A program made the position numbers and the translations under genes. DNA of 64,000 nucleotides from Candidatus Omnitrophota bacterium (GTDB taxonomy: Bacteria > Omnitrophota > Omnitrophia > Omnitrophales > Aquincolibacteriaceae): the NCBI GenBank assembly GCA_035352955.1, contig DAOPYQ010000006.1, positions 26,456 through 90,455 of the forward strand, given 5' to 3'. Positions 56,190 to 64,000 of this stretch are shown here, in pieces. Positions within the stretch are counted from its first letter, which is position 1. Every line of letters begins with the position of its first letter. The notes under the pieces were generated by a model, which saw only the letters and a list, made by a program, of their open reading frames with translations, did not search any database and was not told the DNA's origin.

Positions 56190-56394
56190 CCCAAAGTAAG
56201 ATCCGGTTCCGCAGGTTTTTTTGCAAATCATAGCAATTTATAACATCCTATTAGGAAAGCATCTGGTTACATCTAGGCGTGAAAAAAAGTTAAAAAAATT
56301 TTAGACGTTCCCTTGAATTTTCAAAGGTCGCATGTTAGGTTTTTCCGTCAGTTACATTTCCACCGAATTCAGTAGAAGAAAAGGGGAAATTTTT

Positions 56395-57975
56395 ATGTTT
56401 TTGCGCGGTCCTTTTAGAAAGTCAAAAAATGCGCCTAACAAAAAATTTTTACTAGCCTTTTTAAGTCTTTTCTTCTGTCTTTATTTTGTTCCGCTCGCTA
56501 CAGCCGAAGTCGTTATCCCGCAGGACCTTGCTATGGTCCGTGACCGCTCCGAAGGAAAAAACGGCAAGTCCATCGTTGTTGTCGAAGAAGCTCACGTCCA
56601 ATATGCGGCGCAGAAGGCGCTTGCGAACCTTCTTCAGGATCTCGTCGAGAACGGATCGTTCCGGTATGTTTTCGTGGAAGGAGGGTGGGGGAACGTCTCC
56701 CTTGCCAAACTCCGTTCCCTGACGGACCTTTCCCGTCGAGGGGAGATCGCGGAGCGGTATTTACGCGAAGGGAAGATCTCCGGTGAGGAATACCTGGACC
56801 TTTCGACAGATCTTGATATGCATCTTTGGGGTGTCGAAGATCCCAAGCTTTACGAAGCCAACATGAAAGTTTTTCTGTCCATTTCCGAAGCGCAGCCCGG
56901 TCTTCTTGCCGCAGTCGGAACCCTTGAGACCGAAACGAAGGCGCTGCGCACCGGGTTGTTGACCCCCGCCATGAACGAGGTCCTTGATAAGCGGCAGGCC
57001 TTGGACGACCAGAAGATCACTCTTTTGGATTATGCCCTTTTCCTTAGCAAAGCGTTGCCCGACGAGGGCGTGCGTTATCCGCATCTTGTGCAGCTTGCGA
57101 CTCTCTCCGGGGGGAACGGTTTTTATGATCCGGACAAAGTCGCGTTTGAAAAAGAATCGGCGGTCCGATTCCTTTCCAATCGTTTGACGAAGCCGGAGCT
57201 TGAGGCGATCCTCGCGTTGGGCGGCGAGAAAACGGCGGAGCAAGGCGTTTGTTTTCTGGAGGCCCTTTTGGCAAAGACCGCTTCTTTCCCGGAGGCCCGC
57301 AAAGAACTTTCACTTCAGAACCTTCGGAGTTACCGGGACCTGCTTCAGAAGACCGTCGGCATGGATTCTTCCGTGCTTCAAGACGAGATCGAAAAAGCCG
57401 GCCGTGAGGTGCTGTTGTCTCTGAATCCTTCGCAGAAACAACAAGAATTTCTCGGCGTCCTTCAGGGGATCCGTTTCCTCAAAAAACTTTTCAATCTGAC
57501 CCTGGGTTTGAACGAGTTTCAACGCGCCTCCTCCCATGATTTTGAGTTCGATCTTGTGGCGTGGGACAGTTTTCTGAAAACGCAATGCGCGAAGAACAGT
57601 ATTCCTTACGTTTCTTTTGATGGCGCGGTGTTCGCCAAATACATTCCCGAAGCCAGGACTTTTTATGAAACGGCGATCGCCCGCGAGGCCGCCATGGTCA
57701 AGAACGCCGTCGTGCTGATCGAAGGGGCCGGGTTGCGGCGCGCCGTTTTCGTGATGGGAGGGTTTCACAGTCGCGCGATCTTCAAGGCTCTCAAGGAACG
57801 GGGCTACGGCGTGACCCTTGTCTCTCCGCGTTTCAATCCGGAAAATGATCAGACGGCTCACGATCAATACCTGAATGTTTTGAAATATAAATGGACGGGC
57901 AGGTCGGAATCCGCCGGTCCGGAACTGAAGTCCCAAAGCGCCAAGATCACCGGTTTAGATCCCAAACAAGTTTAA
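56395..57975 (+). CDS. Exported hypothetical protein. Weak resemblance to the TraB/GumN/TIKI family (C-terminal VFVMGGFHSRAIFKALKERGYGV).
   Basis: Signal peptide LLAFLSLFFCLYFVPLATA. N-terminal IVVVEEAHVQ and C-terminal GGFH motifs. RBS AAGGGGA. Confidence 0.5.
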   Translation: MFLRGPFRKSKNAPNKKFLLAFLSLFFCLYFVPLATAEVVIPQDLAMVRDRSEGKNGKSIVVVEEAHVQYAAQKALANLLQDLVENGSFRYVFVEGGWGNVSLAKLRSLTDLSRRGEIAERYLREGKISGEEYLDLSTDLDMHLWGVEDPKLYEANMKVFLSISEAQPGLLAAVGTLETETKALRTGLLTPAMNEVLDKRQALDDQKITLLDYALFLSKALPDEGVRYPHLVQLATLSGGNGFYDPDKVAFEKESAVRFLSNRLTKPELEAILALGGEKTAEQGVCFLEALLAKTASFPEARKELSLQNLRSYRDLLQKTVGMDSSVLQDEIEKAGREVLLSLNPSQKQQEFLGVLQGIRFLKKLFNLTLGLNEFQRASSHDFEFDLVAWDSFLKTQCAKNSIPYVSFDGAVFAKYIPEARTFYETAIAREAAMVKNAVVLIEGAGLRRAVFVMGGFHSRAIFKALKERGYGVTLVSPRFNPENDQTAHDQYLNVLKYKWTGRSESAGPELKSQSAKITGLDPKQV

Positions 57976-58003
57976 ATTAAAACCCAAAGGAGATTTTCAA
58001 ACA

Positions 58004-61000
58004 ATGAAACTCAACACACTCTTCACGAAAATCACAGCGCTGATCGTTTCGATCGGTCTTATGATCCCCACGCCGGCATATGCCGCGCGGCCGCTTTCTG
58101 CCGGGAACGCTTCGGGGGTCCGAGCCGAACTCCGCGACGCACTGATGGGGTCGCCCGCCGCGATTGGCGCCAGGCTTGTCGAACGCCACGAAAAGCGCGT
58201 GAGCGCCAAAGATATCACGGCGAATCTCAAGGACCTGAACCGCTGGACGAGTTTTGGTGATGAAGAAGAGTCGAAAGAGTTTTTCAATCTCGCGGAAGAC
58301 ACCCGCGCCATGATCAATACCTTTCGGACGCAGAACGCGGGGAAGGCTCATTCGTTTCTGGCGGATCTCTACAAAGTCATGATCGCGAAGATCGATGAGA
58401 ATGAAGCGAACCCCAATTTCAAGATCTGGACCAAGCCGCAAAATGAGGTTGAGGTCGAACTTTGGGCCGCGACGGGACAGATCTCGGGTCTTGTCCCCGG
58501 CGTTCCGATGGCGGACCTTTCCGGACGTAAATCCCAAGCCGAGATCGATGCGACCCTGGAAGGAAATCCCGAGATCACGGCGTACCAGCGTTTTGCCGAT
58601 GCCGGCGGTTCTTCGATCGATCTTCGCGGCTTGCAGAAATATCTCAACAAACTCGGCGTGATGTGGCTGGATGACATTACCTCAACCACGGTGATCTCGA
58701 GCCAATTCAAGGTGAACCTGAAACTTTCGAAGGCCGCGAGTGCGGATATTAACGAGTATGTGATGGTGAGCCGTAAGTTCAGTCAGAAGCTCGGGAAGAT
58801 CGTCGAGCAGGAAATGCGCGTGGTAGTGCGCAAAGACGCTAACGGCAATCTTGTGGATGCCGAAACAGGCAAGAGCATTTTTAACAAGAACGGCCAGATC
58901 TCCATGAAGTACGCCTTCGCCGACATGATGAACATGCTCGGGGTGTGGGGCGTGAAGGGGCGTTTCGAAACGGTGGACCCGATCTCCGAGGTCGGCGGTT
59001 TCGGCCGTTCCGGCGCGTCGCTTGCAATGTTCCTGGACGCGGCATCGATGCTGTCCGGTATTCCTTTGACCCGGGCCGACAAACAGGCCGAATTGATCTT
59101 TCTTGAGAACGAACGCTACGGCGGGCTCACGGGCGGTCAGGAGACCGGGTCGACGCTCAGCGGAAAGCCGGTGCAGTTCAGCTGGATGGAATTCGTTCGC
59201 GATCGCTTCGGGCGTTTTGTGTTTGGCGGCGGAACGACCCTCAACACTTCGCTTCATGATCCCGCGACGGGCATGAGTGAGGACGAGTATCTGAACGGAA
59301 CGGTGCTTGGCGCGCTGCGTATGGTCCAGCCCGGTCTGGAATTTGTCGCGAAGACCCATCAGGACGGAAGTCCTGTGCTTGATGCCGACGGGGACCCTGT
59401 CTACGGGCCCGCGGACACGCGCACGGCGGGTTTGATCAACACGGTCTGGACATGGCTTTTGGATCACGCGGAAGGTCTTTTGCTGCATCTTGAAAAGACC
59501 GGACTCGCGAACCAGTCTCTGTTCGGTCTGCGGAATGGCCTGCTGGATCTCACGATCCGGGCGTTGAACCGTCACCGTGTGGTGCGGAACCAGTTGGACC
59601 GTCTTTATTTACGGGTCACGCTCGGTTATATGCGGATGGATGAAGCGAAAAAAGCGGCGATGTTTCCGGCCGAACGCGGCATGCTCGACAAGTTCGTAGC
59701 GCTCGCGGAAGGCAAGAGCGGCGAGGATTCGCCGATCCTGAAAGCCTATATCGCGCGTTTCATCGAGGAATCCGGCGCCGGGAAACTTGCCGAAGGCCAG
59801 ACGATCGCGGAGAAGGTCCGCACGATGACGCAGGCGCAGGTGGACCAGGTCGCGAGCCACAGTCTTTATTCGCTGACGAGTGAAGCGTTCCTGAACGATT
59901 ATATTGTGGATTTCTGTAACAAGATCCAGCCTCGCAAGGACGGGAAGAGCTGGAAAACGACGGATAAGGATCTTCCGGTCGGCGCATTCCTCGTCGGCGC
60001 GGGTGGCCCCGGCACGAACATCGTTCTTGCGTTCAAAAATTCAGAGATCGCGGAACAGTTCGATGCCTATATGAAGAGCCGCGGCTTCCCGATGTTCGTC
60101 AACAAACCTCTGGGAGCGAACGGCGAGGTCGGTTATGAAAACGTGATCAAGACCCGGACCACGGGCGGCCTTCTTCGCGGGTTCATGAAAGTCGATACCG
60201 GCAAGCCGATGGAATACAAGAATTGGCCGGCGGCAAGCGTTCAAAAAGAAAAACCGGTGATAGGCATTTATGACCAGACGACGGGGACGTTGACCGTGTC
60301 GAATGAGGATTATCCGAAATTTGCTTATCTTCCGAGGGTCCGCCCTCAAACGGGGGCGCTGATCTCCGAAGAGCATGCGTCGGATCCTTATCGGGTCAGG
60401 AATGAACAGTATTACGATATTTTGGCAGAAACCGGACGCGAATTTGTAATCAATGGGAACCGTATCACGGTCGGAGAGATTAAGGGCGGCAAGGTCCGGT
60501 TGACATGGGGCGCAATGGCGTATGACTACGCGGCGGGGGAGGCCCTGCAGTATGGTCCGGCGCGTATTATTGTGAAGCAGGTTTTCAGCGATGTCGATGT
60601 CGGTAAAGTGTCGCGCGTGATCCTGTCGATCCAGGTGCATCCCGGACTTTCGTTGTTCGTCCAGAATGAAAACTCGGCGTTCAACGTTCAGGGCTCCGCT
60701 CGTGCTGAGAAGAGGGACCCGAACTTCGGGGGAAAAGAAACTTTGGAGGGTGCTACGTCTGCCGAGGTGATGGCGTTTTGGGAATCACTTAAATCGCGCC
60801 TGACTCGTGTTGAAAATGGGAAAGATTATTTTCCTAATTGGCCTGAAGGGAGAGGATTGGTCTTGGGGGCCGATCTCCCGGTTCATCTTGAGGAGTTCCT
60901 TCCGAGGGGTTCTACGCGTAGCCAATATGTCGAATCTTTTGAAGATGGAGACCTATTTTTCGAGGAGATGTCTGGAAAAGAAGGCTACTGGGATCTGACC

Positions 61001-63916
61001 GTTTCAAACGATGGAGGACGGTTGAATTTTACGATCAGACCCGGTGTGGCGGCGGTTCCGAACGTGACGCTCCGGGACAAGACCAATAATGATCCGAAGG
61101 GGATCGCGGACATTGTCTACAGCGTTCAGGCCGGGAAGATCACGTCAGAACCCCGGTTCTTTGATAACCTCTGGTTTCCGTCGTACAACGAGCAAGGGCT
61201 TGTGCGCCTCAGCATGGCGGCTAGTGAAATTACTGAGCCGATCCGTGCGGCGGTCCTCAAGGCTGCTGCGGAGTCGGGGTTGGCTGACGCCGATGTGCAC
61301 CTCGAGTTGTATGTGAAACGTCAAACCCGGAACGCTCCGGTGACGCTCAAGATATTTGTCCGTTCCGTTGCTGCCCGTCGTGAAATAAGGACGGTGGAAT
61401 ACGTCGAACCCGTTTCCGCGGAAGTGTTGCGTACGGAAGCGAGCATTGCGTCGGGGATCGCGTGGCTTCAGAAGAACGCCTACATCTTCGGCAAAGGGTT
61501 TGGTTACGATCTCCGGATCAATGATTCCCTGGCGGAAGCCCAGGCGGCCGTCGCGGCGTTTTATGATATCGGTCGGACCCTCGGCGGGACCGGTTACCTG
61601 AAACGCCTTGACCAGGAATCGCTCCGAGCGCTGGTCACGGCAGATCATCGGCCGGCGTCAGACGCCTTGCGTATGGCGACGATCCAGGGGCTTGCGGACG
61701 AAGGGATCCAGGTCGTAACGCAGGCGGACGGGACCGTGATCACGACGGGTCTTACTTCCCGGATGTCGTTAGAGGGAAATTTCGATCTCGGGATCCAGGA
61801 GACCGGCAGTCATAATCCTCCGGCAGGGAACGGCGCGAAGATCACGCTCCAGGGTGAGCCGCTGTATGGGCCCGCGCTCATGAAACTTTTTGAGGATACG
61901 GTCAATCGTCAAGGTTGGTCGAAGACGATCTCTCCCCGTGAAGTGACCAAGGATACCGGTATGATCCCGAATCACGTTGAGGGGCTTATCAAGGCAACGC
62001 CGCAGCTTAAGAATCCGCTCCCGATCATCGTGGATTATCGCGGAGGCGTGGCGTCGACGGTCTTTACGCCGCTGGCGCGTGCGAAGGGGTACGAGAACAC
62101 GATCTATCTGGACGCCGCGGAGGCGGATCTTCCGGACGCGGTTTTCGCGACGGACCGTCCCGTGATGGTCATTCTGAACGCGGAGCCCGCTCCCGATATG
62201 AAGCACGGAAGGTGGGATCCGAGCGTGGATGTGGCGTACGAGAACATCCAGAAGCTGCAGCGCAGGATCCAGGAGGATCCGCGTTTCAAGGCCCAAGCGG
62301 GATACCGTCCGTATGCCGGGGTGGTTTTTGACGGCGACGGCGACCGCGCGGGTTTTGCGAACGAGGACGGCGTGATCTTTGCGCCGGATCGCATGTTGAT
62401 CGCTTATTACGAAGCCTTCCTGAAACAGAACGTTGCGGGGATCCGTGCGCTCAACAAGCTCGGCCACACGGTCAAGATGGCGCTCGATGTCCGGGCGTCC
62501 GCGGTGATCGTTAGCGTGATCGAGAAGCTGCGTCAGGAGACCGGCGTTCGCGTGGCCGGAGAATTTATCGCGGCAGGTTATCCGAACCACCGCTCTTTTG
62601 TCAAAGAAGAATTGACGGACATTCAGGCCGTTTTGGCGGAGAAAGGCGATCAGTTGGACGCCGCGGAGCGTCAGGCCGTGGAGAAACTGATGCTGGGATA
62701 TGTTTCTGCGGAAGCGTCCGGGCATTTCTTTTTTAATGTGCTTGAGCCGGACCAGTTCCTGAAAAAGAAACTCGTCGTGGATGACGGCGTGGTCAGCGTG
62801 ATGCAGATGCTTGCCATTGCCGACCGCGGGCGTCAAACGATTCAGCAGATCGATGCCGGGATCCCGCTTCTGCCGGTCCTGCCCGTGGGCGAGCCGGATA
62901 TCCGTCTGAATAACGCTCCTTCCGACGTGACGAAGAAGCAGCTTTTGGGCGAGGAGATCGTCCGGGCGTTCGCTGAGGCGAATCCGGAGTTGATCCCGAT
63001 GACGGCCGGGGAATTGATGGCGAAGGTCGTGGCGGCGCGTGACAACCCGCCGAAACGGCAGAGTGCGGAAGAGCCGTTGCTTTTGGTCGACGGTGTCCGT
63101 CTGAAGCTGACGAACGGGACATGGTTCCTTATCCGCAAATCGAATACGTCGGCGTATTTGGTCAATAAAGCGGAAGCCAATACCGAAGCGCAGCGTCAGG
63201 CCTTGCTTGAAACCGGTGAGAAATTATTGGCCGCGATCGAGAAGGCGAAGATGACGCAACCCGATTACGCACCGTTGAGTACCGAGCATCTCAAGAAGAG
63301 CTTGGTCAAGCTCGGCGACACGATGCGTGCCGAGAAGCGGATCGCGGACACGCAGGCGACGGCGGTTGCTGCGCCGGCCGTTTCCGTGAATTTTGCCAAG
63401 GTGATTGGCGGGAAGGCGCTTATTCCCTCCAATATCGGAGAGGTTCGCGGGATGCTTACCGGTTCGGCCCAGGAAGCGTTGGTGCTGGACGGGGCCTTCC
63501 TTTTTGATGAAGAATTCGCGGCGCTTCCTCTCGTGCCGGCGCTTGCCGGGGGGAACCCGGTTGTGGCGATGACGCGGACCCGTGAGGAAAAACGCATGGT
63601 CGAGGATTTTAATGCGCAGTTGCCGGCCGGAGTATCGCCGATCCTGATCGCGAGCGGTCCGGAAGAACCCTTGCAGTTGCTGCGTGCGGAGATCACGCGT
63701 CGCGTTCGTCTCGGAATGATGAAGGCGGGAACAAGGATCCGCGCGATCGTGACGGCTTCGTCGAATGATGTAGCGCTCCTGAAGAAGCAGATCGGGGAGC
63801 AGGGGATCTTTATTGCGACGCAGGGATGGGTGGCGAAGATCGCGGAGCGGGCGGGTCTCACGGCCATGCTCCAGCGGTTCGTTGCGGAATTACGCGCGAT
63901 CTCGACCTCCGCGTAA
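58004..63916 (+). CDS. Giant (1970 aa) signal-peptide protein with an embedded alpha-D-phosphohexomutase (AlgC/ManB-type PMM/PGM) domain at about aa 1200-1780. About 1200 N-terminal residues are of unknown function.
   Basis: Signal peptide MKLNTLFTKITALIVSIGLMIPTPAYA. Phosphohexomutase signatures TGSHNPPAGNGAKI (phospho-Ser loop), FDGDGDRAGF (metal loop), AEASGHFFF (sugar-binding loop), DGVRLKLTNGTWFLIRKSNTSAYLVNKAEA (phosphate-binding domain 4). Terminator immediately downstream. Confidence 0.8.
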   Translation: MKLNTLFTKITALIVSIGLMIPTPAYAARPLSAGNASGVRAELRDALMGSPAAIGARLVERHEKRVSAKDITANLKDLNRWTSFGDEEESKEFFNLAEDTRAMINTFRTQNAGKAHSFLADLYKVMIAKIDENEANPNFKIWTKPQNEVEVELWAATGQISGLVPGVPMADLSGRKSQAEIDATLEGNPEITAYQRFADAGGSSIDLRGLQKYLNKLGVMWLDDITSTTVISSQFKVNLKLSKAASADINEYVMVSRKFSQKLGKIVEQEMRVVVRKDANGNLVDAETGKSIFNKNGQISMKYAFADMMNMLGVWGVKGRFETVDPISEVGGFGRSGASLAMFLDAASMLSGIPLTRADKQAELIFLENERYGGLTGGQETGSTLSGKPVQFSWMEFVRDRFGRFVFGGGTTLNTSLHDPATGMSEDEYLNGTVLGALRMVQPGLEFVAKTHQDGSPVLDADGDPVYGPADTRTAGLINTVWTWLLDHAEGLLLHLEKTGLANQSLFGLRNGLLDLTIRALNRHRVVRNQLDRLYLRVTLGYMRMDEAKKAAMFPAERGMLDKFVALAEGKSGEDSPILKAYIARFIEESGAGKLAEGQTIAEKVRTMTQAQVDQVASHSLYSLTSEAFLNDYIVDFCNKIQPRKDGKSWKTTDKDLPVGAFLVGAGGPGTNIVLAFKNSEIAEQFDAYMKSRGFPMFVNKPLGANGEVGYENVIKTRTTGGLLRGFMKVDTGKPMEYKNWPAASVQKEKPVIGIYDQTTGTLTVSNEDYPKFAYLPRVRPQTGALISEEHASDPYRVRNEQYYDILAETGREFVINGNRITVGEIKGGKVRLTWGAMAYDYAAGEALQYGPARIIVKQVFSDVDVGKVSRVILSIQVHPGLSLFVQNENSAFNVQGSARAEKRDPNFGGKETLEGATSAEVMAFWESLKSRLTRVENGKDYFPNWPEGRGLVLGADLPVHLEEFLPRGSTRSQYVESFEDGDLFFEEMSGKEGYWDLTVSNDGGRLNFTIRPGVAAVPNVTLRDKTNNDPKGIADIVYSVQAGKITSEPRFFDNLWFPSYNEQGLVRLSMAASEITEPIRAAVLKAAAESGLADADVHLELYVKRQTRNAPVTLKIFVRSVAARREIRTVEYVEPVSAEVLRTEASIASGIAWLQKNAYIFGKGFGYDLRINDSLAEAQAAVAAFYDIGRTLGGTGYLKRLDQESLRALVTADHRPASDALRMATIQGLADEGIQVVTQADGTVITTGLTSRMSLEGNFDLGIQETGSHNPPAGNGAKITLQGEPLYGPALMKLFEDTVNRQGWSKTISPREVTKDTGMIPNHVEGLIKATPQLKNPLPIIVDYRGGVASTVFTPLARAKGYENTIYLDAAEADLPDAVFATDRPVMVILNAEPAPDMKHGRWDPSVDVAYENIQKLQRRIQEDPRFKAQAGYRPYAGVVFDGDGDRAGFANEDGVIFAPDRMLIAYYEAFLKQNVAGIRALNKLGHTVKMALDVRASAVIVSVIEKLRQETGVRVAGEFIAAGYPNHRSFVKEELTDIQAVLAEKGDQLDAAERQAVEKLMLGYVSAEASGHFFFNVLEPDQFLKKKLVVDDGVVSVMQMLAIADRGRQTIQQIDAGIPLLPVLPVGEPDIRLNNAPSDVTKKQLLGEEIVRAFAEANPELIPMTAGELMAKVVAARDNPPKRQSAEEPLLLVDGVRLKLTNGTWFLIRKSNTSAYLVNKAEANTEAQRQALLETGEKLLAAIEKAKMTQPDYAPLSTEHLKKSLVKLGDTMRAEKRIADTQATAVAAPAVSVNFAKVIGGKALIPSNIGEVRGMLTGSAQEALVLDGAFLFDEEFAALPLVPALAGGNPVVAMTRTREEKRMVEDFNAQLPAGVSPILIASGPEEPLQLLRAEITRRVRLGMMKAGTRIRAIVTASSNDVALLKKQIGEQGIFIATQGWVAKIAERAGLTAMLQRFVAELRAISTSA

Positions 63917-63948: not shown

Positions 63949-63985
63949 GGGCAGGCCCGGTTTTCCGGGTCTGCCCGTTTTTTTT
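63949..63985 (+). terminator. Rho-independent terminator after the giant gene.
   Basis: GGCAGGCCCGG stem, ttttcc loop, CCGGGTCTGCC, then T8. Confidence 0.75.
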
Positions 63986-64000
63986 ACACAAAAACCGGAT

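Follow-up and report, generated by a model that had tools for sequence, protein, structure and literature searches.

The window (the whole 64,000-nucleotide stretch of DNA analysed here) encodes a 1970-residue protein whose gene is preceded by a ribosome-binding site and a leader-bearing partner gene and is followed by an intrinsic terminator (Table 1). NCBI lists the identical sequence as a hypothetical protein (HNX68961.1 / HPS37561.1), and both this protein and four of its neighbours are on record as Candidatus Omnitrophota bacterium. A first-pass annotation of the same DNA had described a 1970-residue polypeptide encoded by a gene with its own terminator and co-oriented with an exported protein just upstream, and length, orientation and terminator were confirmed by the ORF, by the shared plus strand and by the hairpin located 3' of the stop codon (63949-63978; -45.7 kcal/mol, z = -6.9), which runs into eight T residues. 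The terminator was missed by the promoter/terminator scan and recovered by RNA folding, and Rfam returned zero matches across the window.

The upstream gene is a conserved partner of the gene for the 1970-residue protein. Its product carries an N-terminal hydrophobic leader that ends in ATA before a Glu, its residues 84-499 match the first 419 residues of P0042 (E 2e-41), a 2700-residue protein that also carries a GHMP-like module, and a 50%-identical ortholog is encoded at the same position in the syntenic metagenome locus L005. The TraB/GumN label (PF01963) that had been attached to this gene found no backing in Pfam or NCBIfam searches to E = 10 or in PDB searches with either the sequence or a profile.

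Table 1. Features of the gene for the 1970-residue protein and its flanks (positions in the window; aa, residues of the product).
Feature	aa	Position	Strand	Remarks
Upstream partner gene		56332..57975	+	longest ORF 547 aa; 480 aa in NCBI
Ribosome-binding site GGAG		57989..57992	+	11 nt before ATG; read from sequence
Whole gene (ORF)	1-1970	58004..63916	+	ATG start; 1970 aa plus stop
Sec-type signal peptide (predicted)	1-27	58004..58084	+	sole hydrophobic segment; relatives share leader
N-terminal segment	28-185	58085..58558	+	no homologs past ~aa 60; pLDDT < 50; no Pfam match
First R-A-E-L-R motif	40-44	58121-58135	+	in N-terminal segment
GHMP-kinase-superfamily module (anomeric sugar-kinase fold)	~186-783	58559..60352	+	homologs, model, Foldseek
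Middle segment	784-1139	60353..61420	+	no relatives or confident fold; pLDDT < 50
Second R-A-E-K-R motif	900-904	60701-60715	+	in middle segment
alpha-D-phosphohexomutase (PMM/PGM type), four domains	~1140-1752	61421..63259	+	loops, profiles, model
Ser loop TGSHNPP	1267-1273	61802-61822	+	aligned to AlgC Ser108 loop
Metal loop FDGDGDR	1442-1448	62327-62347	+	aligned to AlgC
Sugar loop AEASGHFFF	1569-1577	62708-62734	+	E, S, G, H kept
T6 homopolymer		62729..62734	+	within GHFFF codons; T5 in one JGI assembly (L002)
Phosphate loop IRKSNTS	1710-1716	63131-63151	+	aligned to AlgC R421-T425
Helical connector	1753-1794	63260..63385	+	model, alignments; holds third motif copy
Third R-A-E-K-R motif	1775-1779	63326-63340	+	in relatives at same alignment position
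Conserved C-terminal domain	1795-1970	63386..63913	+	ends ...STSA; predicted alternating beta-alpha (Rossmann-like) fold
Intrinsic terminator		63949..63986	+	GC-rich stem of 13 bp with UUUU loop, T8 behind it; folding

From the N-terminus onwards, the chain consists of a Sec-type leader, a relative-free segment of ~160 residues, a GHMP module, a second relative-free segment of ~350 residues, a mutase and a Rossmann-like domain of ~180 residues. The mutase is securely identified as a catalytically complete AlgC-type phosphohexomutase that retains all catalytic loops, and it is predicted to be active. Its four loops, the last of them at the end of the domain-4 segment DGVR...IRKSNTS (residues 1696-1716), are colinear with those of Pseudomonas aeruginosa PMM/PGM, to which phmmer aligned three stretches in order (1e-16). 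Pfam PGM_PMM_I (PF02878) matched at 8.7e-10, with 38.9-40.8 bits exceeding the cut-off of 22.5, and the other three Pfam domains followed in order at scores below their cut-offs (domain II, PF02879, 19-22 versus 29.3 bits; domain III, PF02880, 13.4 versus 20.7 bits; domain IV, PF00408, 17.6-19.7 versus 23.1 bits), while NCBIfam GlmM/PgmG matched at 1e-24 to 1e-27. The structure model displays the four-domain architecture (three alpha/beta domains and a C-terminal TBP-like domain), and its superposition with AlgC covers 449 of 459 residues. In the sugar-binding loop G-E-x-S-G-H of these enzymes, the Glu and the Ser contact sugar hydroxyls; this loop is unchanged in the five embedded homologs that cover the region (P0085-P0088 and P0078). 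The catalytic loops in general are kept in the embedded subfamily, whose members share just 26-52% identity, including the one that holds the TGSHNPP serine, whose conservation the first-pass annotation had singled out for checking. Its proposal of an embedded AlgC-type mutase thus stands, and the profile searches did align the region to phosphohexomutases. AlgC itself (PDB 1k2y, 1k35, 4il8) stands alone as a cytoplasmic enzyme 463 residues long, whereas the mutase described here measures ~610 residues, has insertions in domains 2, 3 and 4, contains no cysteine and occupies residues ~1140-1752 of a 1970-residue chain behind a predicted signal peptide.

The ~1200 N-terminal residues, in which no motif had been recognised previously, include a module of ~600 residues whose identity as a two-lobed GHMP sugar-kinase fold is secure on the basis of profiles, model confidence (pLDDT 80-95 over residues 145-783) and Foldseek. 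An exhaustive search yielded 83 homologs of this module, mostly inside large proteins, and 15 of the 18 homologous modules that were aligned matched Pfam GHMP_kinases_N (best 5e-6), while the module of the 1970-residue protein itself matched neither GHMP_kinases_N nor GHMP_kinases_C. The profile of the module family matches mevalonate and homoserine kinases, with motif III (VGAGGPG, residues 664-670) aligning to GAGGGG of mevalonate kinase; motif II reads EVGGFGRSGAS (residues 329-339), and the module alignment shows no variation at G331, G332, S336 and G665-G668. Foldseek returned 81 PDB matches at E<1e-3, the best 50 of which are all GHMP sugar kinases, among them GALK1, WcbL, HddA-like proteins, FKP and GalNAc kinase. 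Compared to the anomeric sugar kinases of this superfamily [galactokinase (6zfh, 1wuu), the WcbL/HddA-type heptose-7-phosphate kinase (4usk, 3k85), the fucokinase part of FKP (9iip) and GalNAc kinase (2a2c)], the fold (Foldseek E 1e-7, target-normalised TM-score 0.47-0.65) and motifs II and III are alike, but the module is larger (~600 versus 300-450 residues), has large insertions, shares only 8-13% identity, lacks a Pfam match and is embedded in a leader-bearing protein. Glu380, in the stretch LTGGQET (residues 375-381), is at the position that would presumably correspond to the catalytic Asp of GalK/HddA (GWQDQ/GIMDQ motif); most relatives of the module have a Gly at this presumed catalytic-base position (consensus GGQGH).

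The middle segment (residues 784-1139) matched only the same protein in the exhaustive search and nothing in Pfam, and sequence or profile searches against Pfam, NCBIfam and PDB returned nothing for residues 28-185 and 900-1149. At the other end of the protein, the C-terminal domain is modelled at a pLDDT of ~80-92 and is common to P0066, P0083, P0030, P0084, P0003 and the L005 protein, P0030 and P0084 being fragments that share this domain alone. Sequence and profile searches of Pfam, NCBIfam and PDB gave no match for it, and we rejected its interpretation as a response-regulator receiver because strand 3 ends without an acidic residue. The R-A-E-x-R motif, present in three copies, is not a DNA-level repeat, as nothing but the codons is common to the three sites at the nucleotide level, nor is it purely a mark of disordered linkers, since the model places the third copy within a long helix and relatives have additional copies within the folded C-terminal domain.

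The family was revealed by the exhaustive HMMER search. In the word-index search, the whole protein retrieved only itself and one distant match, and the C-terminal domain alone retrieved one fragment; a genome scan with the whole 1970-residue protein found nothing. For pattern scans, the sequences in alignments A2 and A6 differed too much from one another, and the narrower A3 and A7 led to L003/L004 and L005. Both the leader and the C-terminal domain are common to P0066, P0083 and P0003. At L005, the genes for a periplasmic binding protein, FecCD, an ABC ATPase and the upstream-gene ortholog are found as in the window, and these shared neighbours are followed by a gene encoding leader, PGM, PGI and C-terminal domain, of which the PGI is conserved like a housekeeping enzyme (8e-162). 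P0078, a related large protein, combines citrate synthase with an orthologous PGM domain, other family members have a different PGM type, and the domains found in relatives include GPI, PGI, FBPase-like, CofD, HATPase_c and citrate synthase. These proteins form a small family in which interchangeable central-metabolism enzymes are bracketed by a common leader and C-terminal domain.

The Sec signal peptide noted in the first-pass annotation has the expected layout, with K2 and K9 in the n-region, the h-region ITALIVSIGLMI, the c-region PTPAYA and a predicted cut between A27 and A28, while export as such is a prediction. By sequence, the leader conforms to Sec/signal peptidase I rules (positive n-region, h-region of 7-15 residues, small residues at -3/-1), resembles in layout the leaders of the BtuF-like and OEP proteins of the window and comprises the only hydrophobic segment (residues 3-28) of the entire protein, with more positive charge before than after this segment. 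The host is a diderm, judging from its TonB-dependent receptor, OEP and AcrB. Export is further supported by this charge distribution, by conservation of the leader including PxP(A/G)YAA in P0066, P0083, P0003 and the L005 protein, and by an extreme depletion of cysteine akin to that of outer-membrane proteins: only 1 of 1970 residues is a Cys, compared to 0.91% in the 34 other ORFs of the window (P = 2.6e-7), where comparably low values are seen only for OEP and the TonB receptor. Cysteine is just as scarce in relatives (0/1057, 1/2584 and 1/1434), as opposed to stand-alone, leaderless versions of the kinase-like module of ~500 residues, which have ~1% Cys. As evidence, Cys depletion is nonetheless indirect and could reflect a constraint other than export.

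That the long ORF is an artefact, either an assembly chimera, as the first-pass annotation had considered, or a gene pair fused by a frameshift, is exceedingly unlikely. The gene is indeed broken in the JGI contig L002, where the T run at 62729-62734 is one T short and the frame is consequently split into 1585 and 392 residues, but the exact 1970-residue sequence is present on four contigs from four sources (NCBI, JGI, Logan and ENA), with two NCBI MAG proteins among the records, mutase domain 4 stays in frame with domains 1-3 in the window version, leader and C-terminal domain co-occur in relatives as well, and no composition break was found; we therefore rejected this explanation. Very unlikely, too, is a non-catalytic reuse of the mutase and kinase folds as mere sugar- or phosphosugar-binding modules of a large surface or adhesin-like protein, a role that had also been suggested for the protein earlier. 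Giant Omnitrophota proteins have often been proposed to be adhesins, the kinase-like module has diverged beyond recognition by Pfam, and the prevalence of Gly at the presumed catalytic-base position among its relatives would fit such reuse. However, Pfam searches with the whole protein and with fragments revealed no adhesin, repeat, lectin or cell-wall-binding domain, and the Ser loop, DGDGDR, the E-x-S sugar loop and RxSNT all persist at an identity as low as 26-52% on a fold that superposes almost entirely on AlgC.

With the enzyme identities secure, we infer location and physiological substrates. We lean, without strong conviction, towards an exported modular multi-enzyme protein whose leader is cleaved and whose mature part resides outside the cytoplasmic membrane. 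The leader would be a real signal peptide, and the mature protein of ~1940 residues would work in the periplasm, at the surface or after release from the diderm cell. There, the mutase could interconvert hexose-1-phosphate and hexose-6-phosphate, a reaction that requires only Mg2+ and a bisphosphate primer and no ATP or NAD, the kinase-like module may bind the sugar or sugar phosphate or else, given a supply of ATP such as lysed prey might provide, phosphorylate it at the anomeric carbon, and the shared C-terminal domain might handle docking, sorting or maturation together with the conserved upstream partner. Two features of the kinase-like module weigh against this reading: on its own it draws no Pfam match, and it has a Glu at the presumed position of the catalytic Asp. 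Counting against export, sugar phosphates, ATP (for a GHMP kinase) and acetyl-CoA (for the citrate synthase of P0078) are not known to occur outside the cytoplasm; moreover, the PGI of L005 and similar enzymes could be the sole copies of the cell and, for this reason, cytoplasmic. An alternative is a membrane-tethered cytoplasmic metabolon that draws on normal ATP and sugar-phosphate pools and channels sugar to sugar-1-phosphate and on to sugar-6-phosphate, or in reverse towards sugar nucleotides or glycogen, an arrangement that we judge rather unlikely. Its biochemistry fits, in that GHMP-type kinases depend on ATP and both citrate synthase and a highly conserved PGI are present in relatives, a cytoplasmic reading is preferred for giant proteins that have only TM segments and contain PGM, GT5 and similar domains (10.64898/2026.06.07.730766), and West-Roberts et al. 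caution that an overlooked transmembrane helix could assign domains to the wrong side (10.1101/2023.11.21.568195). Yet the orientation rule points the opposite way, with K2 and K9 before the hydrophobic core and a lower net charge after it, the core of ~12 residues followed by two prolines is short for a membrane-spanning helix, the conserved PxP(A/G)YAA signal-peptidase site would be purposeless in an anchor, no second hydrophobic segment is available to flip the topology, and the Cys content is that of outer-membrane proteins rather than of the cytoplasmic proteins of the window.

Export might go further than a single protein. Conceivably, though we consider it improbable, central-metabolism enzymes (phosphohexomutases, PGI, sugar-kinase-like modules and even citrate synthase) are exported by this Omnitrophota lineage as Cys-depleted modular pre-proteins bracketed by the common leader and C-terminal domain, with R-[AS]-E-x-R at module joints serving as maturation sites and the upstream leader-bearing protein aiding maturation or docking. 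If so, part of sugar-phosphate metabolism would take place beyond the cytoplasm, acting for instance on what prey cells contain, and the motifs would provide the first concrete candidate sites for the cleavage of giant proteins, which West-Roberts et al. described as missing (10.1101/2023.11.21.568195).

According to two preprints, giant proteins of Omnitrophota that bear signal peptides contain domains such as PGM/PMM, GPI and FBPase in predicted extracellular parts, and both preprints leave the resulting topology paradox open (10.1101/2023.11.21.568195; 10.64898/2026.06.07.730766). The view of the first-pass annotation that such an arrangement is unfamiliar from characterised systems is therefore outdated. 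Neither preprint could place the enzyme domains because proteins of 10,000-147,000 residues cannot be handled experimentally. The 1970-residue protein poses the same paradox at a clonable size, with one leader, two recognisable enzyme modules, a defined C-terminal domain and a syntenic relative that is distinguished by its enzyme cargo alone, and its small size and defined modules make export directly testable. If export is real, this bacterium runs phosphosugar chemistry outside the cytoplasm, which would bear on the feeding of these ultra-small cells, which are probably predatory or dependent on a host; if not, standard signal-peptide rules mislead in Omnitrophota, affecting how all of its giant proteins are read.

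The 1970-residue protein is a compact form of this reported and unexplained arrangement. Like the 'Archaeovorins' (10.1101/2023.11.21.568195) and the class-1 'multi-enzyme metabolic clusters' (10.64898/2026.06.07.730766), it comes from Omnitrophota, begins with a predicted signal peptide (a signal peptide or TM segment in the group at large), contains several distinct metabolic enzyme domains and places PGM/PMM and other sugar-phosphate enzymes outside the membrane by prediction, with the same topology paradox. Those proteins range from at least 10,000 to 147,000 residues, and at 1970 residues the present one lies below the length thresholds of both the 2026 preprint (at least 10,000) and the 2023 preprint (at least 30,000). 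Pfam searches of the whole protein or fragments revealed no HEAT, TPR, GT5/GT1, C39 peptidase or dockerin domain. New are the GHMP fold in the N-terminus, the Rossmann-like C-terminal domain, the shared bracketing and the Cys depletion; a text search of 10.1101/2023.11.21.568195 and 10.64898/2026.06.07.730766 turned up none of the words cysteine, linker, polyprotein and GHMP. Different from the giant proteins, it possesses one hydrophobic segment only, and its leader and C-terminal domain are fixed while the enzyme cargo varies between syntenic loci. Leaderless 'moonlighting' enolase, GAPDH and PGM occur on the surfaces of Gram-positive pathogens and likewise represent cytoplasm-type sugar-phosphate enzymes reported outside the cell. 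However, these are ordinary housekeeping enzymes lacking a signal peptide, whereas the enzyme considered here forms part of a dedicated modular protein that bears a leader and is depleted of Cys.

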